Shown here in pieces: positions 23,157 through 54,107 of a DNA stretch of 64,000 nt. Position 1 is the first letter of the stretch; each line of letters begins with the position of its first letter. The notes under the pieces were generated by a model, which was given only the letters and a program-made list of their open reading frames with translations, searched no databases and was not told where the DNA came from. The position numbers and the translations under genes are program-made. This DNA comes from Alcanivoracaceae bacterium. Lineage in GTDB: Bacteria; Pseudomonadota; Gammaproteobacteria; Pseudomonadales; Alcanivoracaceae. Where the stretch lies: the NCBI GenBank assembly GCA_029210325.1, contig JARGPU010000007.1, forward strand, positions 32,439-96,438, in the 5' to 3' direction.

Positions 23157-23250
23157 AGGGAGATGACATAGCTTCGATGTCTTGTATGCTAGCTGGATTC
23201 TGGTCTGATAGGGCAGCTTGCACAGTTTTTCCTTGATAGGGAGGAGCGTT

Positions 23251-40413: not shown

Positions 40414-41802
40414 ATGAGTATTTCAACCCTGGCGATGAATTTAAGTGCCCGTGTGGTGCCGATGCAATGGCAGATCAAAGCGGCGCATCTGGCACAAAAA
40501 ACGCTGGATAGAATCGGCCTGGCTGCGAAGATCCCTGAGTTTGTGGAGTCACCCTTGCCGGATGTGTCCACCTTGGCGATTGAAGATATTGATGTCAGCA
40601 ATCCCTTTCTCTGGCGTCAGGGGTTGTGGGGTTCCTATTTTAAGCGGCTGCGCGACGAGCAGCCCGTGCACTTCCAGAAGAACAGCCCCTTCGGGCCTTT
40701 TTGGTCGGTCACCCGTTTCGACGATATTCTTTTTGTCGACAAGCACCACGAGCTGTTCTCGGCCGAACCAATCATCACTTTGGGTGATCAGCCCGCTGGC
40801 CTGGCGATTGAAACCTTTATCGCCATGGATCCGCCCAAGCACGATAAACAACGTCAGGCGGTTCAAAATGTGGTTGCGCCCAAGAACCTCAAGGAAATGG
40901 AAAGCCTGATTCGACAGCGTACTCAGGAGGTGCTGGATAACTTACCGGTGGACCAGCCATTCGATTGGGTGAGCAGTGTATCCATAGAGTTGACGGCGCG
41001 CATGCTGGCCACATTGCTCGATTTCCCCTACGAGCAGCGGCGCAAGCTGGTGTACTGGTCCGATGTGGCTGCGGCCAGCCCGGAAACCACCGGAGGGCAG
41101 GTGGAGCGTGATGAGTTCTTTCCGGTTGTTGCTGAGGTGGCGCAAGCGTTTTCTCAGCTGTGGCGTGACAAGGCAGCCCGCCAGAATGCTGGAGAAGAGC
41201 CCGGGTTCGACATTATCAGCCTGATGCTGAATAACGAGGACACCAAGGATCTGATCCATCGGCCGATGGAGTTTCTCGGCAATCTGGCATTGCTGATCGT
41301 TGGTGGTAACGATACCACTCGCAACTCTATGACCGGCGGCGTGCTGGCGCTGAACAAGTTCCCGCAGGAATTCGACAAGCTGAAATCGAATCCTGCCCTT
41401 ATTCCGAACATGGTGTCCGAAATTATTCGCTGGCAGACACCGCTGGCTTATATGCGCCGAGTTGCCAAAGTGGATGTGGAGCTAAATGGTGCAACCATCC
41501 GCAAGGGCGACAAAGTGGTGATGTGGTATGCCTCTGGTAATCGCGACGAGCGCGCGATCGATAACCCGGACGATTTCATTATTGATCGCAAAGGCGCGCG
41601 TAATCACCTGTCTTTCGGTTTTGGCGTGCACCGTTGCATGGGTAACCGTCTGGCCGAGATGCAGCTGAGAATTCTGTGGGAAGAGCTGCTGGAGCGATTT
41701 GACCGTATCGAAGTTCAGGGCGAACCAGAATACGTTCAGTCGAACTTCGTCCGCGGTTATACCAGCATGATGGTCAAAGTGAGCAACAAAAACCGGAGCT
41801 GA
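40414..41802 (+). CDS. cytochrome P450, CYP153 family alkane terminal hydroxylase
   Basis: Heme loop FGFGVHRCMGNRLAE and I-helix LLIVGGNDTTRNS. N-terminal region IEDIDVSNPFLWRQGLWGSYFKRLRDEQPVHFQ is typical of CYP153A. Confidence 0.92.
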   Translation: MSISTLAMNLSARVVPMQWQIKAAHLAQKTLDRIGLAAKIPEFVESPLPDVSTLAIEDIDVSNPFLWRQGLWGSYFKRLRDEQPVHFQKNSPFGPFWSVTRFDDILFVDKHHELFSAEPIITLGDQPAGLAIETFIAMDPPKHDKQRQAVQNVVAPKNLKEMESLIRQRTQEVLDNLPVDQPFDWVSSVSIELTARMLATLLDFPYEQRRKLVYWSDVAAASPETTGGQVERDEFFPVVAEVAQAFSQLWRDKAARQNAGEEPGFDIISLMLNNEDTKDLIHRPMEFLGNLALLIVGGNDTTRNSMTGGVLALNKFPQEFDKLKSNPALIPNMVSEIIRWQTPLAYMRRVAKVDVELNGATIRKGDKVVMWYASGNRDERAIDNPDDFIIDRKGARNHLSFGFGVHRCMGNRLAEMQLRILWEELLERFDRIEVQGEPEYVQSNFVRGYTSMMVKVSNKNRS

Positions 41803-41805
41803 GCC

Positions 41806-43068
41806 ATGAGTCATTCACCGTCCCAGCCCGGCGAGAATCAGGTATGCGTGATCATCGGGGCCAGTCATGCGGCGGCCCAGCTCGCCACCAGTCTGCGCCA
41901 GCAAGGCTGGAGCGGGTCCATTCGCATGATTGGCGACGAAGGTGGGCTGCCTTACCAGCGGCCACCATTGTCGAAGGCGTTTCTTTGCGGAGAAAAGGGT
42001 GCCGACAGCCTGATAATTCGACCCAGTGCTTTCTATGAAAAGCATCAGATCGAATTCATCCCGGGTAGAGTGACTGCGATTGATCGGGCGGCCAAGACGC
42101 TGACTCTGGCGGATGGCAGTGAGCAGCACTATGACAAGCTGGCGCTGTGTACCGGCACCAGAGTCATCCGCTTGCCGATTAAGGGCGCAAGCCTTGCCGG
42201 TGTGCACTATCTGCGTACTCTGGCGGACGTTGAAGGCATTCGCCGGGAGCTGCCGGATACCCGTCGTGTGGTCATCATCGGCGGCGGCTATATCGGTCTG
42301 GAAACCGCCGCGTCATTGCGTAAGCAGGGTATTGATGTGGTCGTGCTGGAAATGGCCGAACGGGTATTACAGCGGGTCACTGCGCCGCAAGTTTCCGCCT
42401 TCTATCAACGTATGCACAGCGAAGCCGGCGTAATCATTGAGACCAGCACCATGGTGGCAGCGTTTGACGGTGAGCAACGAGTTGAGCGAGTGCTATGTGC
42501 CGATGGACGTTCTTATGCGGCGGACATGGTGATTGTCGGGATTGGCGTTAGGCCGAATAGTGAGCTTGCCGAAGCTGCCGGGCTTGAGATAGACAACGGC
42601 ATCGTCGTTGATGAGTATTGCCAAACACAGGACCCCGACATCGTTGCAGCCGGCGATTGTGCCAATCAATGGGACCCAGGCTCCGCCCAGCGGCGGCGGC
42701 TGGAATCCGTACCTAACGCGGTGGAGCAGGCGAAAACCGCTGCTGCCACCTTGTGCGGGGAAAAGATCCCGCAGATCAGCTTGCCCTGGTTCTGGTCCGA
42801 TCAATATGACCTTAAACTGCAGATGGCTGGTTTGAATCAGGGCTACGATCAGGTGGTGATTCGCGGTACCGCCGATTCGGGTAGCAGCTTTGCTGCGTTC
42901 TACTTCCAGCAGGGGCAGCTGATCGCCGCTGATTGTGTTAATCGTGCTCCTGAATTTATGCTGGCGAAAAAGTTGCTTGGCCAAAAACAAACTTTCGATC
43001 TAACCCAGCTTGCCGACGAAGCCATTCCAGTTAAACAACTGATGGCGGAGTTGACGGCTTCAGCCTGA
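41806..43068 (+). CDS. FAD-dependent ferredoxin--NAD(P)+ reductase (putidaredoxin reductase-like)
   Basis: VCVIIGASHAAAQLA and VVIIGGGYIGLETAA dinucleotide-binding motifs. 420 aa. Last gene of the P450 operon. Confidence 0.88.
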   Translation: MSHSPSQPGENQVCVIIGASHAAAQLATSLRQQGWSGSIRMIGDEGGLPYQRPPLSKAFLCGEKGADSLIIRPSAFYEKHQIEFIPGRVTAIDRAAKTLTLADGSEQHYDKLALCTGTRVIRLPIKGASLAGVHYLRTLADVEGIRRELPDTRRVVIIGGGYIGLETAASLRKQGIDVVVLEMAERVLQRVTAPQVSAFYQRMHSEAGVIIETSTMVAAFDGEQRVERVLCADGRSYAADMVIVGIGVRPNSELAEAAGLEIDNGIVVDEYCQTQDPDIVAAGDCANQWDPGSAQRRRLESVPNAVEQAKTAAATLCGEKIPQISLPWFWSDQYDLKLQMAGLNQGYDQVVIRGTADSGSSFAAFYFQQGQLIAADCVNRAPEFMLAKKLLGQKQTFDLTQLADEAIPVKQLMAELTASA

Positions 43069-43307
43069 AAGGCTGGGGTGGTGACATGTCAACAAACAGG
43101 AGGGAGTCAGCGAATAGATTGATGTCCTCCAGTCTCAGACCCGGTTTTCGCCTTCCGGCAATGATGCCGCATGCTCGCGACTTCTGCCGCTTTTACTATT
43201 ACAAGCTAATCGAGTCATATTTGGGCATATGCTTTGACAGTAATGCCATTCTCAGGGAGACTTGCTGACTACTGTCTGGCAATTCGCACCTAAATCTTGG
43301 GAATGCT

Positions 43308-43766
43308 TTGAAAGAAACTCCTGAAGTAAAATCAGGGACGTCGACGGTTTCGTCCCAGCGTGATGGATTGTCAGCAGAGTCTCCTCAGGGGGAGCACAAG
43401 GCGGGGCTGATATATTTTATCGTCCCTCTGATGCTGCTGTTCTCTAGCGCCATTATGGCGACTGCCTGGCTTGGCCATTTGCGCTTTAAGGAAGATCTGA
43501 CTTTCTTGATGGCGACGCTTTTTGCCTGGCTGCTGGTGCTTCCGGAGTATGCGCTTAACATCCTTGCGCTGCGTCTTGGTTATCGAAAGTTCACCGGCGG
43601 GCAGATGGGGGCGTTCAGGCTGTGCACCGGTGTTGTCGCCATTGCCTTTGTTTCTCATTATATGTTGGGTGAGGAGCTGACCATTCAGAAGTTGCTAGGC
43701 TTTGGGGTTATGGCTTTTTCAATGATCCTGATATCAAGCTCCAGTAGCAAAGCGATGGATCAATAG
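43308..43766 (+). CDS. DUF486 (DMT-superfamily half-size) membrane protein with N-terminal extension
   Basis: The core PLMLLFSSAIMATAWLGHLRFK ... VLPEYALNI is paralogous to the next gene. TTG start, so the N-terminus is uncertain. Confidence 0.55.
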   Translation: MKETPEVKSGTSTVSSQRDGLSAESPQGEHKAGLIYFIVPLMLLFSSAIMATAWLGHLRFKEDLTFLMATLFAWLLVLPEYALNILALRLGYRKFTGGQMGAFRLCTGVVAIAFVSHYMLGEELTIQKLLGFGVMAFSMILISSSSSKAMDQ

Positions 43767-43769
43767 CCA

Positions 43770-44102
43770 ATGGTATTCTACGCCGTCCCACTAATGCTGT
43801 TTGCTTCTAGTCTGTTGATGGCGTTTGCATGGCTGGGGCATATCCGTTTCCGCCACAAGGGGTTTTTCTTCGCTCTTTGCGTGAGCTGGTTTATCGTGTT
43901 ACCTGAATACCTGCTTAATATTTCGGCGATTCGCTGGGGCGTTGGCAGTTATCAGCCAAGCGAAATGGCTGCTATGAACCTGAGTTCGGGGGTTGTCTGC
44001 GTTGCTATCGTGGCCAAGGTATTTCTGGGTGAGCATCTTAATCGCCGCCAGATCGCCGGGTTTTTCTTGATGGGGCTTGGCGTATTTATGGTTGTGCTCT
44101 AA
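43770..44102 (+). CDS. DUF486 (DMT-superfamily half-size) membrane protein
   Basis: 110 aa with 4 TM helices. AFAWLGHIRFRHK ... VLPEYLLNISA is the DUF486 pattern. Confidence 0.65.
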   Translation: MVFYAVPLMLFASSLLMAFAWLGHIRFRHKGFFFALCVSWFIVLPEYLLNISAIRWGVGSYQPSEMAAMNLSSGVVCVAIVAKVFLGEHLNRRQIAGFFLMGLGVFMVVL

Positions 44103-44158
44103 GGTTTTGGTAGTGAATTCGGAATCCCTTTCGGGTTAACTATTTAGATTTCTTCAAT

Positions 44159-44190
44159 AAAAAAGGCGACACCGGAGTGTCGCCTTTTTT
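44159..44190. terminator. bidirectional intrinsic terminator
   Basis: A6-ggcgacac-cgga-gtgtcgcc-T6, lying between the convergent DUF486 gene and GlyGly-CTERM paralogue A. Confidence 0.75.
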
Positions 44191-44207
44191 ATTTTTCTTG
44201 CCTGAAG

Positions 44208-45640
44208 CTAGCGCCGCATTAGCGTGCCATGCGACGGCGCAGCATCACTGCGCCTAGCATCAACATGAGCACGGCCGGTGCGGTGCTACCGCCGCTGCTG
44301 CCGCCACCAGTGGACACCTTGCCCATGACGATCTTGCTGCCTGCGCCATCATCGGCCGCATAGACTCTGGGCCAGAATAGCTTGCCATCGTCCGCCATGG
44401 CAGCGGGGTAGGCCTTGTTCCAGCCATTGAAGCTCACCGCATTACTGGTCAAGACATTAGAGTCACTCGCTTTGCCCGAACTGCTGACGGATACATGGCT
44501 CATGCCACCACGCATGCCGTGGAACACTTGCACGGTGTTGTTGCTTGCCATGAAGGCCTGTGCATATTTGAACGGGCCAAGCTCGGAATCATCAACGACT
44601 TTGATTGCCGTCATGTCCGCAGCACTGCCGTCTTGATCATCAAGGGAGGGATCCAGCTTGGCGTAGAACAAGGTGCCTCCACTAGCGCTGACCGTGTTAT
44701 AGACATCCCAAATCGGGGCATTGCGCTTGTCGGCCCAGACCACAGCCACCTTGTCCTTGCTATCCGCCATGATGCTGTAATGCGCTGCATGCGGGGCATC
44801 GCCCACATCTGACTCCGAACCCTGATCCGTTGACAGGTTAGTGGTGATCACGTTGGTAGCGTCAATCAGCACGCTGCCATCGGTGCCATCCAGCATGCCG
44901 TAGGAAACCGTGCAAAGATTACCGGTAGTACTGTTGCAATCCTGAAACACAATATGGACATTGCCGTCGCTATCTAAGGCAATAGGGTTGGTGCCATGAC
45001 CGTTGTGATTTGCATCGGTAAACGGCCTCACCGGTGCAATAACTTCCGTCAACGTAGAGTCATATTTGGTAAACAGGCCATCGTGGCTCCAGACGTAAAC
45101 ATTGTCGGCATCATCCAACTCGATAAACGGATGCTTGAAGTCCGGTCCAGCATCGACTTCCGCCTCTTCCGTGATGGAGGCTAGAACCGGCGAAGTGCCG
45201 TCCTGCGGAGCAAGGGAGGGATCGAGCTTGATCAGATACAAGCTGCCCGCTTGGTTGTCGGTATTACGGTAGTCCCTAAAGCCCCAAGACACGTACACCT
45301 TGTCGTCCGATCCCACCTCGATATCTGCAGTGGTGACAGAGTCACCGGCAGCGTCAGTGGTCAGTTTGACCTCATCGATCAGCACGGTGCCATTCTTTGA
45401 GACCATCATGTAGCCGACGTTGGCATCTGTATCCCCCCGCATTTGTTCTTCCGCACTCCCGATGCGGTAGACGATGTGATAGTTGCCAGCCGAGTCTTTA
45501 TCGACGCGGGGACGATCCCGCGCAAACGCGGTGTCTGCGGAAATTTCCGTGTATGCCAGCTCTGCCGCGGATACTGGCAATGCGGACAGTGACATGATTG
45601 CAGCGGCGAGGCTTGAAGCCAGCAGCCCTGCACTACTTTT
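44208..45640. repeat. dispersed direct repeat, copy A (pairs with 47000-48430)
   Basis: 44208-45432 appears identical to 47000-48234 (offset 2792). The two copies then differ by a 3-nt C-run indel and scattered substitutions. Weaker homology extends 3' through the terminator. Confidence 0.85.
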
Positions 45641-45658
45641 GGTTGATGTTGTTGTCAT
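44219..45658 (-). CDS. secreted repeat protein with GlyGly-CTERM-like sorting tail, paralogue A
   Basis: Signal peptide ...AAIMSLSALPVSA|AELAY. C-terminus STGGGSSGGSTAPAVLMLMLGAVMLRRRMAR (Gly-Gly, TM helix, Arg cluster). ATG 45658 with an AAAGGGGA RBS. No known catalytic domain recognised. Confidence 0.7.
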   Translation of the reverse strand: MTTTSTKSSAGLLASSLAAAIMSLSALPVSAAELAYTEISADTAFARDRPRVDKDSAGNYHIVYRIGSAEEQMRGDTDANVGYMMVSKNGTVLIDEVKLTTDAAGDSVTTADIEVGSDDKVYVSWGFRDYRNTDNQAGSLYLIKLDPSLAPQDGTSPVLASITEEAEVDAGPDFKHPFIELDDADNVYVWSHDGLFTKYDSTLTEVIAPVRPFTDANHNGHGTNPIALDSDGNVHIVFQDCNSTTGNLCTVSYGMLDGTDGSVLIDATNVITTNLSTDQGSESDVGDAPHAAHYSIMADSKDKVAVVWADKRNAPIWDVYNTVSASGGTLFYAKLDPSLDDQDGSAADMTAIKVVDDSELGPFKYAQAFMASNNTVQVFHGMRGGMSHVSVSSSGKASDSNVLTSNAVSFNGWNKAYPAAMADDGKLFWPRVYAADDGAGSKIVMGKVSTGGGSSGGSTAPAVLMLMLGAVMLRRRMAR

Positions 45659-45841
45659 GGTTTTCCCCTTTGAATTGATCCCAATAACGGTGTTCCACTT
45701 AACCCTGTGAAAACGGACATCAACAGCAAAAGGCCAGATGGCTCTACGGGGCATGGGCGCTACTTCAGAGTAATAGAATCGGGTCTTTTTACAACCCCAA
45801 GCATGGTTTGGAGCTACCTAACTGTAGCTATGAGCCTCGGC

Positions 45842-46333
45842 CTATTGCTCAGGGGCAGGGTCCATCTGCTTAAGCATGCTGGGCTTCCAACTCTTGTCCT
45901 CAGCCCCCCCGGGGATGGCTCGACCGCCTCGACGCGTGTTTTGCTGTTGCTGCAAGATACGCTGCTGCCTGGCATCCTGCTCCGCCAAGGATGCCGGGTC
46001 CATGTTGCCGTCCGGCAAAACGTCAATGCTTGCAAGATGATCATTGCCTTCGCCGTCACGCCGCCAGCCGAGGACAATATTCAGGCCTTCCTGGCGGGCT
46101 ATCTGATCCATTGCCCGCTGCAGGGGCATATTTTTAATGGATATGGATACCAAGCGCTCCACGTTTGAATCTACCTTGATGGTGGCGCCTGTCTGCTGGG
46201 CAACATCGGTCAGTACAGTGGTCAGGGACTGCTGCGCTACTTCTATTGCCACGCTGTCGCCGTTAACTGTCACCTGCGCATGGGCGACAGAAGCCGTTAG
46301 CAGCATGGCAGACAAAATCAGGGGTAATTTCAT
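45842..46333 (-). CDS. periplasmic STN-domain protein
   Basis: Signal peptide MKLPLILSAMLLTASVAHA|Q. SLTTVLTDVAQQTGATIKVDSNVERLVSISIKNMPLQRAMDQIARQEGL fits the secretin/TonB short N-terminal (STN) domain pattern. Gln/Arg-rich tail. Confidence 0.5.
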   Translation of the reverse strand: MKLPLILSAMLLTASVAHAQVTVNGDSVAIEVAQQSLTTVLTDVAQQTGATIKVDSNVERLVSISIKNMPLQRAMDQIARQEGLNIVLGWRRDGEGNDHLASIDVLPDGNMDPASLAEQDARQQRILQQQQNTRRGGRAIPGGAEDKSWKPSMLKQMDPAPEQ

Positions 46334-46362
46334 TTATTGCTCCAACTATATAGCCGTGGCCA

Positions 46363-46890
46363 TTACTCCGCTTGCTCAGAGGAGCTGAAGCGAATCTCCT
46401 GGATTTCCCGGGTAACGGTGATGTAAGCACCGCCCTGCTGCCTGACCAGCTTGATCAAGCCTTTGCCGGTCAGTACCGCCAAGCCGGGCTGCTCTGCCAG
46501 CTGGGCTTGATCCAGTGCAAGCTCAGGGCCGGTGCAAGGCACGAGGGTCACCGTATCGGCGTTATACTGCGCCATCATGCCGGTCAGGTCTGTGGCCGGA
46601 CGAGGGTTCTCGCCCAAGTCGATATCGTGACTTTCAAACCCCTTGAAGAACTCCTTCGGTGGGAAGTACTCCACACCCTGTCCTGTCACCGGCACCACGT
46701 TCAAGTGCGAGCCGCACTTTCCCAACTCCAGACCCGGCCATACCCGATCATCACTGAATTTTTGTCCCTGCTTGCCGCCATCACCAGAATGGGCCTCGGC
46801 GGCAGGTGTGTCAGTCTCGGCTGGATCCGAGCATGCTGTCAGCAGCCAGGCTGATAGCAGCAGCGCTAATAGTTGAAGTGGGCGACGCAT
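46363..46890 (-). CDS. lipoprotein, unknown function
   Basis: Lipobox LLTAC after MRRPLQLLALLLSAW (start ATG 46890). Three further Cys in the mature part. No family recognised. Confidence 0.6.
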   Translation of the reverse strand: MRRPLQLLALLLSAWLLTACSDPAETDTPAAEAHSGDGGKQGQKFSDDRVWPGLELGKCGSHLNVVPVTGQGVEYFPPKEFFKGFESHDIDLGENPRPATDLTGMMAQYNADTVTLVPCTGPELALDQAQLAEQPGLAVLTGKGLIKLVRQQGGAYITVTREIQEIRFSSSEQAE

Positions 46891-46945
46891 ACATACTTCC
46901 CTGATTAAGATAGAAAAGGTGCCTGCCATGCAGACTACCTGATAT

Positions 46946-46977
46946 AAAAAAAGGCGACACCAAAGTGTCGCCTTTTT
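46946..46977. terminator. intrinsic terminator downstream of paralogue B
   Basis: A7-ggcgacac-caaa-gtgtcgcc-T5. Same stem as the terminator at 44165-44184 but a different loop. Confidence 0.75.
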
Positions 46978-46999
46978 ACTTACTTCACCTTGCTTGAAA

Positions 47000-48430
47000 C
47001 TAGCGCCGCATTAGCGTGCCATGCGACGGCGCAGCATCACTGCGCCTAGCATCAACATGAGCACGGCCGGTGCGGTGCTACCGCCGCTGCTGCCGCCACC
47101 AGTGGACACCTTGCCCATGACGATCTTGCTGCCTGCGCCATCATCGGCCGCATAGACTCTGGGCCAGAATAGCTTGCCATCGTCCGCCATGGCAGCGGGG
47201 TAGGCCTTGTTCCAGCCATTGAAGCTCACCGCATTACTGGTCAAGACATTAGAGTCACTCGCTTTGCCCGAACTGCTGACGGATACATGGCTCATGCCAC
47301 CACGCATGCCGTGGAACACTTGCACGGTGTTGTTGCTTGCCATGAAGGCCTGTGCATATTTGAACGGGCCAAGCTCGGAATCATCAACGACTTTGATTGC
47401 CGTCATGTCCGCAGCACTGCCGTCTTGATCATCAAGGGAGGGATCCAGCTTGGCGTAGAACAAGGTGCCTCCACTAGCGCTGACCGTGTTATAGACATCC
47501 CAAATCGGGGCATTGCGCTTGTCGGCCCAGACCACAGCCACCTTGTCCTTGCTATCCGCCATGATGCTGTAATGCGCTGCATGCGGGGCATCGCCCACAT
47601 CTGACTCCGAACCCTGATCCGTTGACAGGTTAGTGGTGATCACGTTGGTAGCGTCAATCAGCACGCTGCCATCGGTGCCATCCAGCATGCCGTAGGAAAC
47701 CGTGCAAAGATTACCGGTAGTACTGTTGCAATCCTGAAACACAATATGGACATTGCCGTCGCTATCTAAGGCAATAGGGTTGGTGCCATGACCGTTGTGA
47801 TTTGCATCGGTAAACGGCCTCACCGGTGCAATAACTTCCGTCAACGTAGAGTCATATTTGGTAAACAGGCCATCGTGGCTCCAGACGTAAACATTGTCGG
47901 CATCATCCAACTCGATAAACGGATGCTTGAAGTCCGGTCCAGCATCGACTTCCGCCTCTTCCGTGATGGAGGCTAGAACCGGCGAAGTGCCGTCCTGCGG
48001 AGCAAGGGAGGGATCGAGCTTGATCAGATACAAGCTGCCCGCTTGGTTGTCGGTATTACGGTAGTCCCTAAAGCCCCAAGACACGTACACCTTGTCGTCC
48101 GATCCCACCTCGATATCTGCAGTGGTGACAGAGTCACCGGCAGCGTCAGTGGTCAGTTTGACCTCATCGATCAGCACGGTGCCATTCTTTGAGACCATCA
48201 TGTAGCCGACGTTGGCATCTGTATCCCGCATTTGTTCTTCCGCACTCCCGATGCGGTAGACGATGTGATAGTTGCCATCCGAGTCTTTATCGACGCGGGG
48301 GCGATCCCGCGCGAACGCGGTGTCTGCGGAAATTTCGGTGTATGCCAACTCCGCCGCGGATACCGGCAGTGCAGACAGTGACATGATCGCAGCAGCCAGA
48401 CTGGCTAGTAGCGGTCCTGCACTACGCTTG
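47000..48430. repeat. dispersed direct repeat, copy B
   Basis: See copy A. Confidence 0.85.
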
Positions 48431-48447
48431 ATGATAGAGTTCCCCAT
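47011..48447 (-). CDS. secreted repeat protein with GlyGly-CTERM-like sorting tail, paralogue B
   Basis: Identical to paralogue A from residue ~75 to the C-terminus. It differs in the signal-peptide N-region (MGNSIIKRSAGPLL), one Gly deletion and one Ala/Asp change. ATG 48447 with a GGAAGGAGAAGG RBS. Confidence 0.7.
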   Translation of the reverse strand: MGNSIIKRSAGPLLASLAAAIMSLSALPVSAAELAYTEISADTAFARDRPRVDKDSDGNYHIVYRIGSAEEQMRDTDANVGYMMVSKNGTVLIDEVKLTTDAAGDSVTTADIEVGSDDKVYVSWGFRDYRNTDNQAGSLYLIKLDPSLAPQDGTSPVLASITEEAEVDAGPDFKHPFIELDDADNVYVWSHDGLFTKYDSTLTEVIAPVRPFTDANHNGHGTNPIALDSDGNVHIVFQDCNSTTGNLCTVSYGMLDGTDGSVLIDATNVITTNLSTDQGSESDVGDAPHAAHYSIMADSKDKVAVVWADKRNAPIWDVYNTVSASGGTLFYAKLDPSLDDQDGSAADMTAIKVVDDSELGPFKYAQAFMASNNTVQVFHGMRGGMSHVSVSSSGKASDSNVLTSNAVSFNGWNKAYPAAMADDGKLFWPRVYAADDGAGSKIVMGKVSTGGGSSGGSTAPAVLMLMLGAVMLRRRMAR

Positions 48448-48757
48448 ATCCTTCTCCTTCCTTATAACCCCAGATAATTTCACCCTGACGCACCGTGAAA
48501 CGAACACTGATCGCATTCCTTTGCCGGATTAGAGGGGATGAGCCTGATAACACCTTAGCCTGATAGGCAGATTTTGCAAGCACGCGTGCTGTATAGACGC
48601 CTTCTAATGAGAGTGATTTTTGTTTGTAAGCTTTTGGCGAGTTGTGCGCTCTCCGCAATGGTAAACAATCAGTACCTGTGGTTTTTGTTTGTGCTATTTT
48701 CTCTTAGCGCCCATATTTAGCCGCAATAAACACCCAGCGTGGACCTTGAGGACACTA

Positions 48758-49993
48758 ATGACGGCCGGTAATAACCGCAGCACTCTTGCCAAGGTCTACT
48801 ATCTTCTCGGCTTGGCCATAAGCCTGTTCCTGATCGCCGAGCCCATGCTGCTGGTGGGGCTATTTCTGCTGCAGCTGTCTATGTGGTTTCGTTTTAAGCT
48901 GCCCGTGTCGGGGGTGGCTCACATTGCGCGTAAATTACGACTGTTTTTCCTGATTATTTTTATTACCTACATGCTCACTGGTAGCGGTGAGGGCACCGAT
49001 CACTGGCTGGAAGTCCCGGTCAGCTGGCTGCCGGACCTTAGCCTGAGTGGGGCGACTCTGGCCCTGTTGATGTGCCTGCGAGTGATGACCCTGGTGCTGG
49101 CGAGCACCTGGCTTCAGCAAACATCCCCTCCCAGAGCCTTGGTCGTCGGATTACGGCACCTGCGTATTCCAGAGAGTGTTGCCTTGACCGTGGACGCGAC
49201 GCTGGCTCTGCTTGGCGGTCAGGACAGAGGTGGTCAAGGCCATGGCAAGGGCGGCGGCAAGGGCCGGGGTAAAGGGGATGGTGAGGGGCGTGGCGACGGC
49301 GGTATAAGCTGGGCTGACATCCGTGCCGGCCGTCTGGCTGCTGTGGATGAGCTGCTGCAGGGCAAGTTTCGCCAAAGCAGGAGGTGGCTGGCGGAGCGCT
49401 ACCCTGAGCTGTCGCGCGAACGTCTTCATGATCTGACGGTGATTCTGGGCGTCAGCCTCACCGTGATGGGGCTCAAGGTACTGCAAATTCTGCCTGGGGT
49501 GCCAATCGCATCCGGGCACAAGAACATGCTGATTGTGCCGCTGCTATTGTTCGCAGCCAAAGCGACTTATATGCGCTTTGGCGCCTTGGCTGCCGGCACC
49601 ACCACCGGCATAGTTTCTTTTCTGATGGGGTATGGCAAGTTCGGCATTCTGGAAATCGCCCATTTCGCCGTGCCTGGCTTGCTTGCAGATATGCTGATGC
49701 CTGTTGCGCGGGCCACCAGTCGTGGCGGCAAGTTGCTGCAGTTTGCGTTAATTGGTGCTGCTATCGGTGCCGGCCGTTTTGCCGCCAACTTGCTCGTTAT
49801 TGTGCTTGCCGGCGCCCCACAGTTAGCTTTTGTGCTGTTTTTGCCGATGTTGGCTTCACAGCTTCTGTTCGGCACTTTAAGCTGCTTCGTCAGTGTGCTG
49901 CTGGTAAATCGCAATTTCACTGATGCACCCGAAGATCATCCAGACACGCGGCCACTGGCCGCTGGTAACAGTCGCAAGTCAGAAGAGTCATAA
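48758..49993 (+). CDS. two-module polytopic membrane protein (CbiQ/EcfT-like N-half, Gly/Lys/Arg-rich linker, unknown C-half)
   Basis: The N-half TM pattern and LVVGLRHLRIPESVALTVDATLALL loosely resemble ECF T-components. Linker is GGQDRGGQGHGKGGGKGRGKGDGEGRGDGG. The C-half has ~5-6 TM helices. 17 nt upstream of the mosA-like gene. Confidence 0.5.
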   Translation: MTAGNNRSTLAKVYYLLGLAISLFLIAEPMLLVGLFLLQLSMWFRFKLPVSGVAHIARKLRLFFLIIFITYMLTGSGEGTDHWLEVPVSWLPDLSLSGATLALLMCLRVMTLVLASTWLQQTSPPRALVVGLRHLRIPESVALTVDATLALLGGQDRGGQGHGKGGGKGRGKGDGEGRGDGGISWADIRAGRLAAVDELLQGKFRQSRRWLAERYPELSRERLHDLTVILGVSLTVMGLKVLQILPGVPIASGHKNMLIVPLLLFAAKATYMRFGALAAGTTTGIVSFLMGYGKFGILEIAHFAVPGLLADMLMPVARATSRGGKLLQFALIGAAIGAGRFAANLLVIVLAGAPQLAFVLFLPMLASQLLFGTLSCFVSVLLVNRNFTDAPEDHPDTRPLAAGNSRKSEES

Positions 49994-50010
49994 TCCAGAG
50001 GGAATAAAAG

Positions 50011-50850
50011 ATGTCAGAACTGGTGAAGGGGGACGGAAGGACCCATATTTCTAGCGGACTAATGAGAGAAAGTCTTGTTAGTCGGCGCCTTCTCAAGGAG
50101 ACCGACTCCGCTTCCGTGAAGAGCATGGTTCCCGATGTGAACATGATCTGTGTTGGCGGGCGTAGCATTATGGACCGTGGCGCCGAAGCCATTATGCCGC
50201 TTGTAGATGCTATCGCTAAACTGAATAGCAACTATCGTATGGTTATTGGTGTCGGTGGTGGCGCCCGCGCCCGACACACTTACTCTATCGGTATTGATCT
50301 GGGTCTGCCGATTGGTGGTTTAGCCCGTATCGTCGGCGGGGTTGAAGAGAACAATCGCGACATTCTGCAATTTCTGCTGGCACCTCATGGCGGTATTACC
50401 TTCGTTAAGGATCACTTTCAGGATCTGCAGCTGTTTCTCAAGAACGGCATGATTCCAGTGTGCATTGGCCAGCCGCCATACCATTTCTGGGAGCCGCCGT
50501 CGTTAGAAGCAGGCCAGCTGCCGGATAACGGCCCGGATACCGGACTGTTCCTGATGGCAGAAGTAATGGGTGCAATGAGCGTCATTTATGTCAAGGACGT
50601 TGATGGCATCTATACCGAAGATCCGCAGAAGAATCCCAACGCTGAGCTGATCCGTGAGATCACCGCAAAAGAGTTGCTGGAAATGGATTTGCCCGACATG
50701 CCGATCGAGCGTGAACTGCTGCGCACTCTGGAAAATGCCAGAACGGTTCACCAGATTCAGGTGATTAACGGCCTCAAAATAGACAATCTGGAACGGGCAT
50801 TGAATGGTGAGCTGGTCGGCACCATCGTCAAGTCCAGCCGCGCGAAGTGA
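50011..50850 (+). CDS. mosA: molybdenum storage protein alpha-like subunit (amino-acid-kinase fold)
   Basis: ICVGGRSIMDRGAEAIMPLVDAI ... GVGGGARARHTYSIGIDLGLP ... PPYHFWEPP ... VDGIYTEDP ... VQVINGL ... GELVGTIV parallels A. vinelandii MosA as I recall it ([48 protein letters not shown]). Confidence 0.7.
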   Translation: MSELVKGDGRTHISSGLMRESLVSRRLLKETDSASVKSMVPDVNMICVGGRSIMDRGAEAIMPLVDAIAKLNSNYRMVIGVGGGARARHTYSIGIDLGLPIGGLARIVGGVEENNRDILQFLLAPHGGITFVKDHFQDLQLFLKNGMIPVCIGQPPYHFWEPPSLEAGQLPDNGPDTGLFLMAEVMGAMSVIYVKDVDGIYTEDPQKNPNAELIREITAKELLEMDLPDMPIERELLRTLENARTVHQIQVINGLKIDNLERALNGELVGTIVKSSRAK

Positions 50851-50869
50851 TCTAGGGAGCAGTAATAAA

Positions 50870-51694
50870 ATGAAAAAAGACGGAAAAATCTGGATCGACG
50901 GCATGGATAATGCCCTGTCCGACCAATCTCTTTCTGGTCACGCTATCCGTGAACAGCTGGCCTCTCGCGATACGGTCACGGTGCTGCCGGATGTATGGGT
51001 CATCAAAATCGGCGGTCAAAGCATTATGGATCGTGGCCGCGCGGCGGTATACCCGATTCTTGAGGAGCTGGTTGCGGCAAAAAAGAATGGTGTGAACTTT
51101 ATTCTCGCCGCCGGTGGTGGTACCCGTGCTCGTCATGTTTATTCCCTTGGCCTGGATCTGAATATGCCTACCGGTATGTTGGCGCGTCTCGGTGCCAGTG
51201 TGCCGGTGCAAAACGCACGCATGCTGCAGATTCTCACCGCCAAGCACGGCGGCATCATGTGCTATCCGGAAGAGCTCGAGAAGCTGCCGTTCTTCCTCAA
51301 TGCTGGCTGCCTGCCGATCACCTCCGGCATGCCGCCGAATGAGTTTTGGGAGAAGTCACAGGCAGAGGGGTTGATTCCCGCTAACCGTACTGATGCGGGC
51401 GTTTACCTGATGGCCGAGTTCCTTGGTGCCAAGGGCGTGCTCTATATCAAGGATGAAGACGGACTGTACACCGATGATCCGAAGAAGAACCCGGATGCTG
51501 AGTTCATTCCTGAAACCACCGCCTCAGAGCTGCTCAATAATGGTCAGGACGACCTGATTGTGGAGCGCGTTGTACTGGAGTACATGATGCGTGGTGATCA
51601 CATCAAGAAACTGCAAATCGTCAACGGATTGAAGCAAGGACAAATCACTGCAGCCCTTAACGGCGAAGACGTGGGCACCATTATCCGCGCCTGA
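50870..51694 (+). CDS. mosB: molybdenum storage protein beta-like subunit (amino-acid-kinase fold)
   Basis: VIKIGGQSIMDRGRAAVYPILEELVAAKKN ... GGGTRARHVYSLGLDLNMPTGMLARLGASV ... NRTDAGVYLMAEFLGAK ... IKDEDGLYTDDPKKNPDAEFIPE ... LQIVNGL ... GEDVGTII closely parallels A. vinelandii MosB as I recall it. Confidence 0.78.
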   Translation: MKKDGKIWIDGMDNALSDQSLSGHAIREQLASRDTVTVLPDVWVIKIGGQSIMDRGRAAVYPILEELVAAKKNGVNFILAAGGGTRARHVYSLGLDLNMPTGMLARLGASVPVQNARMLQILTAKHGGIMCYPEELEKLPFFLNAGCLPITSGMPPNEFWEKSQAEGLIPANRTDAGVYLMAEFLGAKGVLYIKDEDGLYTDDPKKNPDAEFIPETTASELLNNGQDDLIVERVVLEYMMRGDHIKKLQIVNGLKQGQITAALNGEDVGTIIRA

Positions 51695-51726
51695 GTGCTT
51701 TGCTCAGCTGGCTGCGTCGGAGCGGA

Positions 51727-52266
51727 CTAATCTTGGCTCCGACGTTGGCCGCCTTGCTTTAATGCCACTTGGCTGACATTGCGCATCAAGGTTTGCTCCA
51801 TCCCATCTGAAAGCTCGATCAACTTAAACGCACCGCGGCGGTTAGCGCCAATAAAGAACTGTCTGGTGTCCTGCTGCACTTTATCTACTGGGAAACGAGC
51901 TACGTCGCCCTCGCAAGTGATCACTTCGACCACAGTAATATCCGGGGCCATGCCTGCCAGTACGAGCAAGTTCACTCCTTGGGTGCTGGCGCGATGACCG
52001 GCATCAAGCGGCTGTACTTCGGGCATGTCCTCAAATGCTTGTATTTGTTTTTGCCATAGCAACTGCTGCCCGGCGTACAGCGAAAGAGAGTCGCTACAGT
52101 CAGCCTGTGGCTCGCCTTTGTGCGCGGCATCTTCTTGTTTCGGGTTGGATTGCTGTGCAGGCGTCTGAGCTGGCTTGATGGGGCTAACGCTGTTCCCGGC
52201 TAGCCAGATATAAACGCCAGCGGCAACCAGCACTGCGCCCAGCAATACCGCTAATTTAGTTTTCAT
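51727..52266 (-). CDS. membrane-anchored/periplasmic hypothetical protein, last gene of the mod operon
   Basis: N-terminal anchor MKTKLAVLLGAVLVAAGVYIWLA. 31 nt downstream of modC on the same strand. No family recognised. Confidence 0.45.
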   Translation of the reverse strand: MKTKLAVLLGAVLVAAGVYIWLAGNSVSPIKPAQTPAQQSNPKQEDAAHKGEPQADCSDSLSLYAGQQLLWQKQIQAFEDMPEVQPLDAGHRASTQGVNLLVLAGMAPDITVVEVITCEGDVARFPVDKVQQDTRQFFIGANRRGAFKLIELSDGMEQTLMRNVSQVALKQGGQRRSQD

Positions 52267-52297
52267 TTCATACCCCTATGTGTCACGCCTGTATATG

Positions 52298-53416: not shown

Positions 53417-54104
53417 GGCGTAACCTGCCATTGATGAAATAGAGCGCAAACATGCAGGTGAAACTGAACGCCAACAGCAGGCCAGACAAGACGTGCGCCT
53501 GCGCATACTCCAGTGCTTCAACATGGTCGTAAATGGCAATGGAAATTACCCGGGTTTGCCCGGGAATATTGCCGCCAACCATTAGCACGACGCCAAATTC
53601 GCCTAGCGTATGGGCAAAGCCCATGATGGCTGCGGTCAGAAAGCCGCGGGTGCTGAGTGGCAGAATTACCGTAAAAAAAACGTCCAGAGGCCGAGCGCCA
53701 AGTGTTTCAGCTGCTTCAACGAAGCCGCGACCAATACTCTCGAAGGCGTTCTGCAGCGGCTGAATAACGAACGGCATGCTGTAGAGAATCGAAGCAATTA
53801 CCAGGCCACCAAAACTGAACGTCAGTGTGCTTTCGGTCAGCTTCACCCAATAGCTGCCTACCAAACCATTAGGCCCGAGCAGAATCAGCAGATAGAAACC
53901 GAGCACCGTAGGAGGTAGCACTATGGGAAGGGCCACCATGGCTTCAATAACTGTTTTTGCGTGAGATCGGGTGCGAGATAGCCAGAATGCCAGCGGTGTG
54001 CCAAACAGGATAAGGATCGCCGTGCTGATAAGGCCAAGCTTGACCGAGAGCCAAAGAGGGCCGAGGCCAGGCATATTTGCAGTCCAAGCGTTGAAAAGCT
54101 CCAT
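53406..54104 (-). CDS. modB: molybdate ABC transporter permease
   Basis: CysTW-type permease with EAA loop (VEAAETLGARPLDVFFTVILPL). 232 aa. Confidence 0.9.
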   Translation of the reverse strand: MELFNAWTANMPGLGPLWLSVKLGLISTAILILFGTPLAFWLSRTRSHAKTVIEAMVALPIVLPPTVLGFYLLILLGPNGLVGSYWVKLTESTLTFSFGGLVIASILYSMPFVIQPLQNAFESIGRGFVEAAETLGARPLDVFFTVILPLSTRGFLTAAIMGFAHTLGEFGVVLMVGGNIPGQTRVISIAIYDHVEALEYAQAHVLSGLLLAFSFTCMFALYFINGRLRHEH

Positions 54105-54107
54105 TAT

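Follow-up and report, generated by a model that had tools for sequence, protein, structure and literature searches.

The window, the whole 64,000-nt stretch of DNA analysed here, carries twin genes for a predicted beta-propeller protein with a GlyGly-CTERM-like tail, and genes for a small lipoprotein and a stand-alone STN protein lie between the two copies. This propeller/lipoprotein/STN set recurs in unrelated bacteria and is likely an uncharacterised surface-display module rather than a known enzyme system. The account favoured below, judged somewhat likelier to be right than wrong, is that of a propeller sorted by rhombosortase, tethered to a membrane and accompanied by two dedicated envelope partners.

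Organization of the Locus

The four genes of the locus are as follows.

44219-45658, minus strand: copy A, propeller gene (479 aa), on the DMT/CYP153 side; body overwritten by copy-B-type sequence
45842-46333, minus strand: secreted stand-alone N0/STN-fold protein (163 aa), with a signal peptide, an N0-like domain (about residues 20-107), a long helix and a conserved GRAIPGGAEDKSW motif
46363-46890, minus strand: small lipoprotein (175 aa) of an orphan family, with lipobox L-T-A-C and two invariant cysteines (C59, C119)
47011-48447, minus strand: copy B, propeller gene (478 aa), on the molybdenum-island side; donor type in gene conversion

An earlier reading of the letters alone (hereafter the sequence-only reading) had described two minus-strand coding sequences of these lengths, an STN protein and a lipoprotein between them, and a C-terminus common to both propeller proteins, and all of this was reproduced. 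Both copies have good ribosome-binding sites (AAAGGGGAAAACC-ATG and AAGGAAGGAGAAGGAT-ATG). Each of the two proteins consists of a signal peptide, a propeller of about seven blades, a Gly/Ser linker and the GlyGly-CTERM-like tail. Both proteins terminate in STGGGSSGGSTAPAVLMLMLGAVMLRRRMAR, and no other open reading frame in the window has such a tail.

Two Small Envelope Proteins Travel with the Propeller

The STN protein matches Myxococcus PilQ at residues 474-538, the PilQ N0 domain, in profile comparison (E 1.5e-4), and its best fold match is the N0 domain of Neisseria PilQ (E 4.7e-4), followed by others that include GspD N0 and BfpG. The STN/N0 nature assigned to it earlier is thus recovered both by profile and by fold; its score against Pfam STN (PF07660) is 25.7, below the gathering cutoff of 28.4. 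The lipobox of the lipoprotein is kept in all five of the lipoprotein genes translated. Both small proteins are predicted to be periplasmic or located at the outer membrane. The role of secretin adaptor that the sequence-only reading had suggested for the STN protein is putative.

In each Alcanivoracaceae locus examined, the propeller gene occurs together with the lipoprotein and STN genes. The order propeller(s), lipoprotein, STN is found in the window, L001-L004 and L013, while L007 and L008 (the latter on the same contig as L002) add STN matches. The co-conservation on which the sequence-only reading had depended therefore holds in this family, and it extends to distant bacteria. One or both helpers also have homologues flanking the propeller gene in three distant high-GC metagenome loci: L012 has the propeller, then an STN-like gene, then a small protein (hhalign probability 98.6%, E 7e-16), L015 has the propeller followed by an STN-like gene, and L014 has the small protein followed by the propeller. 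The STN-like proteins of these distant loci show weak homology (hhalign probability 48%, E 2e-4). The small protein of L012 has an ordinary signal peptide and no lipobox, which indicates that lipid anchoring of the lipoprotein partner is not universal. Of the distant loci, three are clearly positive, one is possible on gene sizes only and one is negative, a census that is anecdotal since the contigs are short. Because homologues of the helpers travel with the propeller in distantly related bacteria, the two genes between the copies are predicted to be its dedicated partners.

A precedent for such partners is provided by BfpG, TcpQ, CofC and LngC, the N0-like partners of lipoprotein secretins in type IVb pili (PDB 9u5s; PMC12531336). 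Like the STN protein, these are small proteins with a signal peptide and a single N0-like domain, encoded by genes adjoining a lipoprotein gene, and the stand-alone N0-like proteins BfpG and TcpQ bind a segment of the lipoprotein by beta-strand augmentation (PMC12531336). BfpG is the third-best fold match of the STN protein (25% identity over 85 aligned columns, TMt 0.59), a likeness at the level of the fold rather than established sequence homology. Unlike in the pilus systems, the lipoprotein is small (about 155 aa) and without a secretin domain, the module includes no pilus genes, and the N0 protein additionally carries a beta-hairpin, a long helix and a tail, GGAEDKSW, that is conserved. 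The N0/STN domains of secretins (PilQ, GspD/XcpQ), TonB-dependent transducers and FecR-type anti-sigma factors (PF07660) have the common beta-alpha-beta-beta-alpha-beta core, whereas the STN protein is free-standing and not the N-terminus of a secretin or receptor. A secreted protein encoded beside its own private envelope helper also has a parallel among the type II substrates of Acinetobacter, in which LipA and CpaA reportedly have the dedicated helpers LipB and CpaB. LipB and CpaB are inner-membrane-anchored chaperones and are unrelated in sequence or fold to the N0 protein or this lipoprotein.

The Tail, Rhombosortase, and a Proposed Tethering Model

Two further features bear on the sorting of the propeller.

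44222-44314, minus strand: 31-aa tripartite tail of copy A (STGGGSSGG / STAPAVLMLMLGAVML / RRRMAR)
24177-24812, plus strand: rhombosortase, the presumed processing enzyme (TIGR03902)

The closest known system is that of GlyGly-CTERM and rhombosortase (TIGR03501 and TIGR03902), represented by VesB, VesA, VesC and Xds of Vibrio cholerae and ExeM of Shewanella. Its Sec signal peptide, folded passenger, unstructured Gly/Ser linker and C-terminal Gly-Gly motif, hydrophobic helix and Arg cluster are all found in the window protein, a rhombosortase is encoded in the same genome, and some members of the propeller family pass TIGR03501. The differences lie in the passenger, an uncharacterised beta-propeller instead of a protease or nuclease, in a tail (GG-STAPA...) just under the cutoff, with processing, lipidation and the type II route being putative, and in the two co-conserved small envelope proteins that come with the propeller gene. 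To our knowledge, GlyGly-CTERM substrates have not been reported with a pair of this kind.

The sequence-only reading had called the tail GlyGly-CTERM and had named a score below threshold as evidence to the contrary. Against the TIGR03501 cutoff of 15.5 bits, the window tail does fall short, at 10.3 bits in context and 14.6 bits in isolation, and a scan of the full-length protein reported no match. However, the model is passed by P0005, a 72%-identical orthologue (17.1 bits), and by the distant relatives P0087 (15.6 bits) and P0111 (22.4 bits), and homology to P0111 (31% identity, E 1e-36) extends to the residue before the poly-Gly. Sub-threshold tails were accepted on exactly these grounds by Haft and Varghese (2011; PMC3237569), so that the window tail falls within their curation rule; the same study lists three GlyGly-CTERM proteins in a relative, Alcanivorax borkumensis SK2 (PMC3237569). 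The isolated window tail also scores 17.5 bits against the MYXO-CTERM-type model TIGR03382, above its cutoff of 15.85, which indicates that short tail models discriminate little.

The rhombosortase had been identified correctly, with 152.8 bits against a TIGR03902 cutoff of 84. Its proposed membership in one dedicated module with the four genes fails, since it lies 20 kb from the propeller locus among housekeeping genes (its neighbours are pyruvate dehydrogenase, a two-component system, leuA and prfC) and thus outside any dedicated module. A rhombosortase normally serves many substrates.

A profile search found the propeller domain in 8,423 representative proteins. Among the best 147 of these, a regex count gave at least 56 tails of a transmembrane segment plus basic residues (16 with poly-Gly), 8 T9SS-like tails and 16 TSP3-like ends, and one relative with the propeller domain, P0026, carries Pfam Por_Secre_tail. 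The T9SS tails, TSP3 repeats and other surface-sorting signals of these relatives point to an extracellular module.

By analogy with V. cholerae VesB, whose sorting is the known rhombosortase mechanism (PMC6219818; PMC13393428), Sec would export the propeller and the tail helix would hold it in the inner membrane. Rhombosortase would then cut within the Gly-Gly motif and a lipid moiety would be added to the new C-terminus, such that the propeller would stay membrane-tethered, probably to be moved to the cell surface afterward. A tail and a rhombosortase suffice only for membrane association, and crossing of the outer membrane needs a second signal (Roberts et al., 2026; PMC13393428). Outer-membrane translocation, for which the tail alone is insufficient, could be the step aided by the helpers, most plausibly as a periplasmic complex that is tethered to the outer membrane through the lipoprotein and escorts, docks or assembles the propeller.

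The tail could instead be an ordinary C-terminal membrane anchor, its cleavage giving only inner-membrane association, in which case the propeller would be periplasmic together with the N0 protein and lipoprotein and never displayed on the surface. This reading is unlikely. In its favour, the window protein is below the TIGR03501 cutoff, both partners have predicted periplasmic or outer-membrane locations, tail and rhombosortase suffice for no more than membrane association (PMC13393428), and no secretion genes were seen close to the locus, type II genes being absent from the whole 64-kb window. It sits poorly with the orthologous and related tails that pass the GlyGly-CTERM model, with the presence of a rhombosortase, and with the T9SS tails, TSP3 repeats and surface-sorting signals of the relatives.

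The Propeller Domain

The AF2 model of the propeller protein (pLDDT 76.9, pTM 0.79) is all-beta with about 26 strands, and its top Foldseek matches in the PDB are all propellers, at TM-scores of about 0.5 (CylK, Dfer_1899, PL24 ulvan lyase, pseudaminidase and the lectin CV39L). The N-terminal half aligns with the C-terminal half at 31% identity over 143 aa (E 6e-10). The modelled fold is a beta-propeller of about seven blades in which a three-blade unit is duplicated internally, in agreement with the two-fold motif series and the repeated, propeller-like beta-sheet fold suggested previously. Structure prediction and the fold search thus provided a fold class and no specific known relative. The blade motif is P-x-I-A-[LV]-D-x-x-G-N-x-H, with invariant His and Asp residues.

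No curated family covering the propeller, lipoprotein or STN protein was found, and family searches gave no family-level match for the window propeller. The sequence-only reading, which recognised no family, was right about the window protein itself, but the domain belongs to a large uncharacterised superfamily (the roughly 8,400 representatives above). This has distant ties to NCBIfam NF053835, the "PDIAV motif-containing lipoprotein", and to Pfam PF15892 (BNR_4), whose blade motif is of the same kind, P-D-I-A-V/L-D-x-x-G-N-x-H. NF053835 (best E 8e-12) and BNR_4 are matched weakly by relatives of the window protein, in most cases below the curated cutoffs; P0063 scores 28.7 where the cutoff is 27.3, with no single stretch passing. 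The window protein matches neither, and the lipid anchor of NF053835 is N-terminal, in contrast to the C-terminal tail of the propeller. Since neither family has a known function, the link gives no mechanism.

These comparisons also raise the prospect that the propeller acts enzymatically after secretion, for instance as a polysaccharide lyase or a sialidase-like hydrolase with exopolymer or algal glycans as substrate, and that the small proteins are an inhibitor/immunity pair or regulators rather than export helpers. PL24 ulvan lyases, pseudaminidase and sialidases are among the Foldseek matches, the BNR_4 matches of relatives lie in the same direction, and the blade motifs contain invariant His and Asp residues. 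However, the TM-scores are accompanied by only 8-14% identity and are equalled by lectins and WD40 scaffolds, the Asp-box (SxDxGxTW) is absent from the protein, no sequence relative was found in the PDB and no family-level match elsewhere, and each repeat has the invariant residues once, which is the behaviour of structural blade motifs. An enzymatic role is accordingly rated quite unlikely.

Neighboring Genes and Expression

Three intergenic features flank the genes.

44159-44189, minus strand: bidirectional intrinsic-terminator hairpin after copy A, stem GGCGACAC/GTGTCGCC, with an A-run and a T-run on its flanks
46947-46977, minus strand: terminator hairpin that follows copy B and lies 57 nt before the start codon of the lipoprotein gene, with the copy A stem and a different loop
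48448-48688, minus strand: upstream region of copy B, common to the divergent CbiQ-like gene

As noted earlier, the terminator stems are identical and the loops differ, being CGGA after copy A and CAAA after copy B on the plus strand. That each propeller gene is followed at once by a terminator suggests that the propeller is highly expressed and that the helper genes receive a lower level of read-through transcription. The copy B upstream region features TTGCAA-N16-TAAGGT (TTGCAAAA at 48579) and TGGGGTTA (48471), elements that are kept in five genomes.

A molybdenum island comprising modABC, an unknown gene of 180-190 aa, two molybdenum-storage-protein homologues and the CbiQ-like membrane protein adjoins the propeller genes in the window, L001, L002 and L003. 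In L004, where the contig stops short, the CbiQ-like gene at least is present, and L011, from the genome of a 41%-identical homologue, is rearranged, yet its propeller gene directly follows modC. Together with the divergent intergenic region common to copy B and the CbiQ-like gene, this could tie the module to molybdenum, for example to molybdate or tungstate capture or handling at the envelope. Such a role is improbable, given that the Alcanivoracaceae loci are close relatives in which synteny is expected anyway, that the distant, module-bearing L012 and L015 have unrelated upstream genes, that no ModE-type operator was seen in the conserved copy B upstream region, and that no metal-binding motif was recognised.

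Gene Conversion between the Copies

The bodies of the two copies form an exact repeat.

44208-45432, no strand: gene-conversion tract, recipient side
47000-48224, no strand: gene-conversion tract, donor side

Over these 1,225 nt (offset 2792) there are 0 differences, and a perfect 1.2-kb repeat cannot have arisen by chance. The repeat ends at a C-run, C6 at 45433-45438 in copy A and C3 at 48225-48227 in copy B, which gives copy A one extra Gly. The sequence-only reading had described both the perfect repeat and the one-Gly indel, with copy B coordinates that were 10 nt too high (47000-48234 for the repeat and 48235-48237 for the run). Its Ala/Asp change (DSAGNYH in copy A, DSDGNYH in copy B) and the substitutions toward the gene 5′ ends were reproduced; the latter amount to about 10% until roughly 45640/48430, beyond which the sequences are unrelated.

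Gene conversion was assessed in 100-nt windows against the DMT-side and Mo-side genes of Alcanivorax sp. 1008. For copy A, identity to the DMT-side gene is 81-94% across the upstream region, the first ~130 nt and the 3′ flank, where identity to the Mo-side gene is just 54-85%. For copy B, the flanks resemble the Mo-side gene, at 78-91% identity. In contrast, the bodies of both copies are 81-100% identical to the Mo-side gene and only 48-88% identical to the DMT-side gene. Copy-B-type sequence therefore converted the body of copy A once this lineage had separated from Alcanivorax sp. 1008, each copy keeping its own flanks, and this accounts for the perfect identity. With flanks that are positional orthologues and bodies that are both of copy B type, the preference voiced earlier for gene conversion over a fresh duplication is upheld.

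The repeat borders are also seen in the raw reads. A Logan assembly of run SRR23604821 contains a 1,571-nt contig equal to window positions 45459-47029, each end of which lies exactly 30 nt (k=31) past the outermost copy-distinguishing base (45489 and 46999). An assembly or polishing artefact is thus highly improbable, even for a metagenome-assembled genome in which exact repeats exceeding read length are hard to assemble, since this independent k-mer assembly gives a unique middle segment with ends at k-1 past the distinguishing sites, as a true exact repeat would, and the flanks, besides being diverged, have their orthologues in a cultured relative.

Paralogues of the propeller family are 76-98% identical within a genome as opposed to 56-72% between genomes, the exception being the two window copies, whose closest relative is the Mo-side copy of sp. 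1008 at 89-91% identity. The family has undergone repeated duplication and homogenisation in other genomes as well, a pattern common for abundant surface proteins.

C-Terminal Tail and Rhombosortase

The locus encodes a GlyGly-CTERM-type substrate of an uncharacterised propeller superfamily and, alongside it, an N0-domain protein of its own and a small partner. Two propeller genes, copy A and copy B, enclose the genes for the two partners, and a rhombosortase is encoded in the same window. The twin coding sequences and the terminators with the same stems and different loops, both described in the sequence-only reading, were reproduced.

44159-44189 and 46947-46977: hairpins with A-run, stem and T-run; stems identical, loops differ
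44219-45658, minus strand: propeller gene copy A, 479 aa (ORF listing and direct alignment)
45842-46333, minus strand: N0/STN protein
46363-46890, minus strand: small lipoprotein
47011-48447, minus strand: propeller gene copy B, 478 aa (ORF listing and direct alignment)
24177-24812, plus strand: rhombosortase, TIGR03902 152.8 bits (cutoff 84), with a Pfam Rhomboid match

As first read, both copies share one C-terminal tail, STGGGSSGGSTAPAVLMLMLGAVMLRRRMAR. It is arranged at the extreme C-terminus as STGGGSSGG / STAPAVLMLMLGAVML / RRRMAR, that is, a Gly/Ser motif, a hydrophobic helix and a basic cluster, and this tripartite layout is kept across 21 close homologues. The full-length propeller protein gave no match to the GlyGly-CTERM model TIGR03501 (cutoff 15.5 bits), and isolated tails scored 10.3-10.4 bits (31-40 aa) and 14.6 bits (24 aa), all under that cutoff. 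The authors of the model report that it misses some true examples, and accept sub-threshold tails that are C-terminal and tripartite and whose family homology extends into a trusted instance (Haft and Varghese, 2011; PMC3237569). Among the relatives, the tails of P0005 (a 72%-identical orthologue) and P0087 score 17.1 and 15.6 bits, and that of P0111 scores 22.4 bits when isolated and 15.8 bits within the full protein. The window protein aligns with P0111 at 31% identity (E 1e-36), and the alignment ends at VMGKVS, directly before the poly-Gly. Because homology to these three proteins brings the propellers under the curators' rule, they are treated as probable rhombosortase substrates, and processing of the propeller by this enzyme is likely. 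The GlyGly-CTERM assignment of the sequence-only reading thus stands in layout, C-terminal position and homology into trusted instances, but not in the tail's own TIGR03501 score. A score under threshold, which that reading had named as counting against the assignment, is literally what was found, in tails of the kind that the curators' rule accepts.

The MYXO-CTERM domain (TIGR03901 / TIGR03382) was considered as well: two models of this type score on the isolated tail, with 17.5 bits for TIGR03382, which reflects only the common layout. MYXO-CTERM is defined by an invariant Cys in the signature motif ahead of the helix (PMC11980579). Cys is absent from the tail of both copies and of all close homologues, and MYXO-CTERM is ruled out because this defining residue is lacking.

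The identification of the rhombosortase is confirmed by its model score and Rhomboid domain. Its proposed membership of a dedicated module fails: the enzyme lies 20 kb from the propellers in a housekeeping neighbourhood (a TfpZ-like gene, a DUF3592 protein, pyruvate dehydrogenase genes, a two-component system, leuA and prfC), no other tailed ORF adjoins it, and a dedicated enzyme-substrate pair is rejected. Just upstream of the rhombosortase is a TfpX/TfpZ-like type IV pilin accessory gene (23218-23991; 168 bits, cutoff 200). The 569-aa DUF3592 protein (24770-26479) overlaps the rhombosortase 3′ end by 43 nt, and the two genes may be co-transcribed.

The N0/STN Protein and its Small Partner

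The STN-domain protein seen in the first reading has 163 aa, a signal peptide and an N0/STN-type domain. Its match to Pfam STN PF07660 (25.7 bits, E 9.8e-6, residues 57-86) is under the gathering cutoff of 28.4; the identical protein P0027 carries PF07660 in the collection's precomputed table. Searched against the PDB, the family profile finds the N0 domain of Myxococcus PilQ (E 1.5e-4). The AF2 model (core pLDDT 80-87) has the beta-alpha-beta-beta-alpha-beta N0 fold, for which Foldseek returns PilQ N0 (E 4.7e-4), followed by the N0 domains of GspD (GspC-GspD complex), XcpQ and EscC, and by BfpG. In secretins and TonB-dependent receptors the N0 domain forms the N-terminus of a larger protein, whereas here it is free-standing, and no secretin or barrel domain occurs in the N0/STN protein or anywhere in the module. 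BfpG and TcpQ are known stand-alone N0-like proteins; of the two, BfpG attaches by beta-strand augmentation to a stretch of the lipoprotein secretin BfpB (PMC12531336). Their genes stand in type IVb pilus operons, next to that of a lipoprotein secretin, whereas the lipoprotein adjacent here has 175 aa and no secretin domain, and no pilus genes are found at 44000-48700. After the N0 domain and a Gln/Arg-rich helix, residues 134-148 form an almost invariant R-x-G-R-A-I-P-G-G-A-E-D-K-S-W, which sits in a low-confidence region of the model and is without known counterpart.

The Cys-containing lipoprotein noted between the copies is borne out by a lipobox in all five translated genes (the window and loci L001-L004 from related genomes), which also share two invariant cysteines. 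It has no Pfam or NCBIfam family, and its profile gave no credible match against the PDB. A word-indexed homologue search found only the protein itself, a limit of the word index, and relatives were obtained by translating fetched loci. In locus L012, the homologue at 2641-3069 has an Ala-rich ordinary signal peptide, a poly-Gly/Gln stretch and no lipobox, so lipid anchoring of the small partner is lineage-specific.

In all the related loci looked at (the window, L001-L004 and L013) the propeller gene or genes come with both helper genes, which agrees with the co-conservation proposed earlier. L007 and L008 add STN matches, L008 and L002 being one contig. The related loci differ in copy number and gene order, and one of them has a single propeller gene. 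The distant loci are a small sample from high-GC (66-69%) metagenome bacteria. In L012 the propeller is followed by an STN-like protein (BLAST E 2e-4) and then the small lipoprotein homologue (hhalign 98.6%, E 7e-16), in L015 by an STN-like protein (hhalign E 1.9e-4), and in L014 it is preceded by the C-terminus of a small-protein homologue. The genes that come after the 947-aa relative P0042, known from their sizes only, encode 179 and 154 aa; at L016, where the relative has a different kind of tail, the partners are absent. That the neighbourhood is kept between bacteria so far apart speaks for three genes working as one functional unit. Pattern matching underestimates its spread compared with direct look-ups: an STN-profile genome scan found only three species, all Alcanivoracaceae, and a small-protein-profile metagenome scan found one locus. 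No curated library describes the propeller superfamily, the private N0-domain protein or the small partner.

A Proposed Route to the Surface

To our knowledge, sorting by rhombosortase has been worked out for no more than a few enzymes of Vibrio, Shewanella and Acinetobacter. This locus adds a new passenger family, from a large uncharacterised superfamily, with two private envelope proteins, one of which has the N0 fold, a docking element of secretion machines. The propeller protein combines a Sec-type N-terminus, the propeller passenger, a flexible Gly/Ser linker and the GlyGly-CTERM-type tail, in a genome that encodes a rhombosortase. In the mechanism proposed here, rhombosortase would cut and lipid-tether the propeller, which would then probably be displayed on the surface, while the N0 protein and the small (lipo)protein would come together in the periplasm as a complex for its escort, docking or assembly. 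A terminator hairpin stands directly after each propeller gene, that of copy B ending 57 nt before the lipoprotein start codon, and would allow high propeller expression with lower helper expression. This overall picture of processing, tethering, probable surface display and a helper complex is held with moderate confidence, and the specific role given to the N0 protein and its partner is tentative.

Gly-Gly cleavage, lipid modification and type II-dependent surface localisation are known only from experiments on VesB (PMC6219818). A tail and a rhombosortase suffice only for membrane association, and outer-membrane translocation requires a second signal (PMC13393428). A complex that is purely periplasmic and anchored in the inner membrane would stop at such association; we consider it unlikely here, and the C-termini of propeller relatives bear on the question. 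These comprise poly-Gly plus helix plus Arg, other helices with a basic cluster, T9SS tails, TSP3 repeats and an OmpA barrel, and such varied sorting signals mark the propeller domain as an extracellular or surface module. Surface display could be carried further, to a doubtful reading: an undescribed, widespread three-component system in which a private N0-domain adaptor and its partner would give a rhombosortase-processed, lipid-tethered propeller its outer-membrane passage or assembly. If true, that system would supply the "second signal" missing from the GlyGly-CTERM tail, and its adaptor may plug into a secretin or GspC as a secretin's own N0 does. If the helpers mediate export or surface assembly, they would offer a simple genetic handle on the outer-membrane translocation of lipid-tethered products. 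The locus is a good experimental lead on the route of rhombosortase substrates to the surface, and contradicts no current understanding.

Fold and Relatives of the Propeller

The propeller protein has no Pfam or NCBIfam match. A word-indexed search found only 26 relatives, of which the 21 close and named ones are all Alcanivoracaceae; a full profile search found 8,423 representative proteins with a limit of E<=1e-3, and 287 remain when it is set to E<=1e-30. The domain occurs in proteins ranging from stand-alone forms of ~450 aa to giants of 2,000-6,000 aa with several domain copies. The locus marks thousands of unannotated proteins as sharing one recognisable extracellular domain.

The internal two-fold motif series noted in the first reading holds up statistically (31% identity over 143 aa, E 6e-10). 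The propeller-like beta fold suggested with it is matched by an all-beta AlphaFold2 model (pLDDT 76.9, pTM 0.79, ~26 strands), for which Foldseek returns propellers only, at TM ~0.5 and 8-14% identity (CylK, Dfer_1899, PL24 ulvan lyases, a pseudaminidase, sialidases, a lectin and WD40). From the secondary-structure string, we infer about seven four-stranded blades, as two three-blade repeats and a closing blade. The fold class predicted by the model is clear, and Foldseek singles out no specific family or activity. A blade motif, P-x-I-A-L-D-S-x-G-N-x-H-I-V, recurs and is of the same type as that of the NCBIfam "PDIAV motif-containing lipoprotein." Relatives match this family and Pfam BNR_4 weakly, mostly under curated cutoffs; both families are uncharacterised and have this type of blade motif in common with the window propeller. 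For BNR_4 the scores are 23.2 bits (P0041), 22.7 bits (P0053) and 28.7 bits (P0063) against a cutoff of 27.3, with no single stretch passing. A literature search on "PDIAV" found nothing relevant, and the propeller profile found no real relative in the PDB, only spurious polyubiquitin matches in which weak repeats are summed.

A sialidase/BNR propeller is not borne out: the blades carry D-[SA]-x-G-N-x-H-[IV]-V instead of an Asp-box (S-x-D-x-G-x-T-W), and Pfam gives no match. In the comparison with PL24/PL25 ulvan lyases, Foldseek gives TM 0.46-0.49 and 12-14% identity to LOR107. That the propeller is an enzyme, with small partners unrelated to it, is improbable. A tblastn search of the propeller against PLSDB plasmids gave zero matches, and therefore the module is not plasmid-borne in that collection.

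Genomic Neighbourhood

The module lies between a divergently transcribed molybdenum island (48689-54866), on the copy-B side, and a P450 gene set on the copy-A side.

48689-49993: CbiQ/EcfT-like membrane protein, 434 aa, with a Gly/Lys/Arg-rich loop
50011-50850 and 50804-51694: two proteins homologous to subunits of the Azotobacter molybdenum storage protein (MoSto; on its biology, PMC6448029), with E 1e-51 and 3.5e-70 to PDB 2ogx chains
within 48689-54866: a gene of unknown type, 179 aa, and modC, modB and modA (mod genes on the minus strand)
40414-41802: cytochrome P450
41806-43068: ferredoxin-reductase-type flavoprotein
within 40414-44102: two half-size DMT_6 (DUF486) transporter genes

The island adjoins the module in the window, L001, L002 and L003, and L004 shows the CbiQ-like gene before its contig ends. 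This adjacency may be inherited synteny, but is noted as a lead. A functional tie between the propeller module and the molybdenum genes, which so persistent a neighbourhood might bring to mind, is very unlikely, and no molybdate-regulator operator was seen in the conserved upstream region. In several genomes a CbiQ-like gene closely precedes the storage-protein genes in the same orientation. In locus L011 (GCA_033720895.1, JAWWBS010000033.1, 2155-9186), from a distant gammaproteobacterial genome, a 41%-identical propeller directly follows modABC, and the opposite strand just upstream carries the storage-protein pair and a 419-aa membrane protein; the linked genes are those of the window, in a different order.

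Upstream of the Mo-side propeller copy, alignment of five genomes (window 48471 and 48579, minus strand; L001-L004) yielded TTGCAA-N16-TAAnnT, an invariant TGGGGTTA and a ~100-nt leader. The invariant element stands ~20 nt before an AAGGAGA ribosome-binding site. These shared elements suggest a promoter kept across the five genomes and a 5′ leader that may be regulatory. The region upstream of copy A differs from this conserved one, and a simple sigma-70 scan of 44000-48800 found no promoter.

The other flank varies, with a CYP153-type P450, ferredoxin reductase and DMT_6 in the window and in the cultured relative Alcanivorax sp. 1008, and other genes elsewhere. The Alcanivoracaceae are a lineage known for hydrocarbon degradation, and the set at 40414-44102 is presumably a CYP153 alkane hydroxylase cluster typical of Alcanivorax. 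Genes for a ferredoxin and an AraC regulator come ahead of this set in sp. 1008.

Gene Conversion Between the Propeller Copies

Direct alignment shows copies A and B to be identical over 1,225 nt (44208-45432 and 47000-48224); the perfect tract reported earlier is real, but its copy-B coordinates (48234 and 48235-48237) were 10 nt too high. The first mismatch past the tract is a run of six C in copy A (45433-45438) against three in copy B (48225-48227), by which copy A gains one Gly. Beyond this indel the copies differ by ~10% substitutions, among them the Ala/Asp change also noticed at the outset, and their similarity peters out within the signal-peptide codons and promoters. An artefactual repeat is very unlikely: one contig of the Logan assembly for run SRR23604821, 1,571 nt long, reproduces 45459-47029 without a difference and ends exactly 30 nt (k=31) past the distinguishing bases 45489 and 46999, as k-mer graph branching at a true exact repeat predicts.

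Alcanivorax sp. 1008 has the order propeller, lipoprotein, STN, propeller, bounded by the molybdenum island and the DMT_6/CYP153 genes, and the propeller pairs of both genomes were aligned with their flanks. In copy A, identity to the DMT-side gene of sp. 1008 is 81-94% across the upstream region, the first ~130 coding nt and the 3′ flank; for the flanks of copy B, identity to the Mo-side gene is 78-91%. The bodies of both copies are 81-100% identical to the Mo-side gene versus 48-88% to the DMT-side gene. The duplication is therefore older than the species split. After that split, copy-B-type sequence overwrote the body of copy A, and the original preference for gene conversion over a fresh duplication is upheld. 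The locus thus offers a clear-cut case, with a known direction, of gene conversion among the surface-protein paralogues of a marine bacterium.

Elsewhere, genomes carry one to three propeller copies. Three are found in L002 (8315-13097; 83-90% identical to each other) and three in L003 (6193-11434; 76-89%), which points to recurrent duplication or concerted evolution. Copies from different genomes are 56-72% identical, less alike than those within a genome, and hence duplication and homogenisation recur in the family. The first two propeller copies of L002 are each followed by a hairpin of the same sequence.
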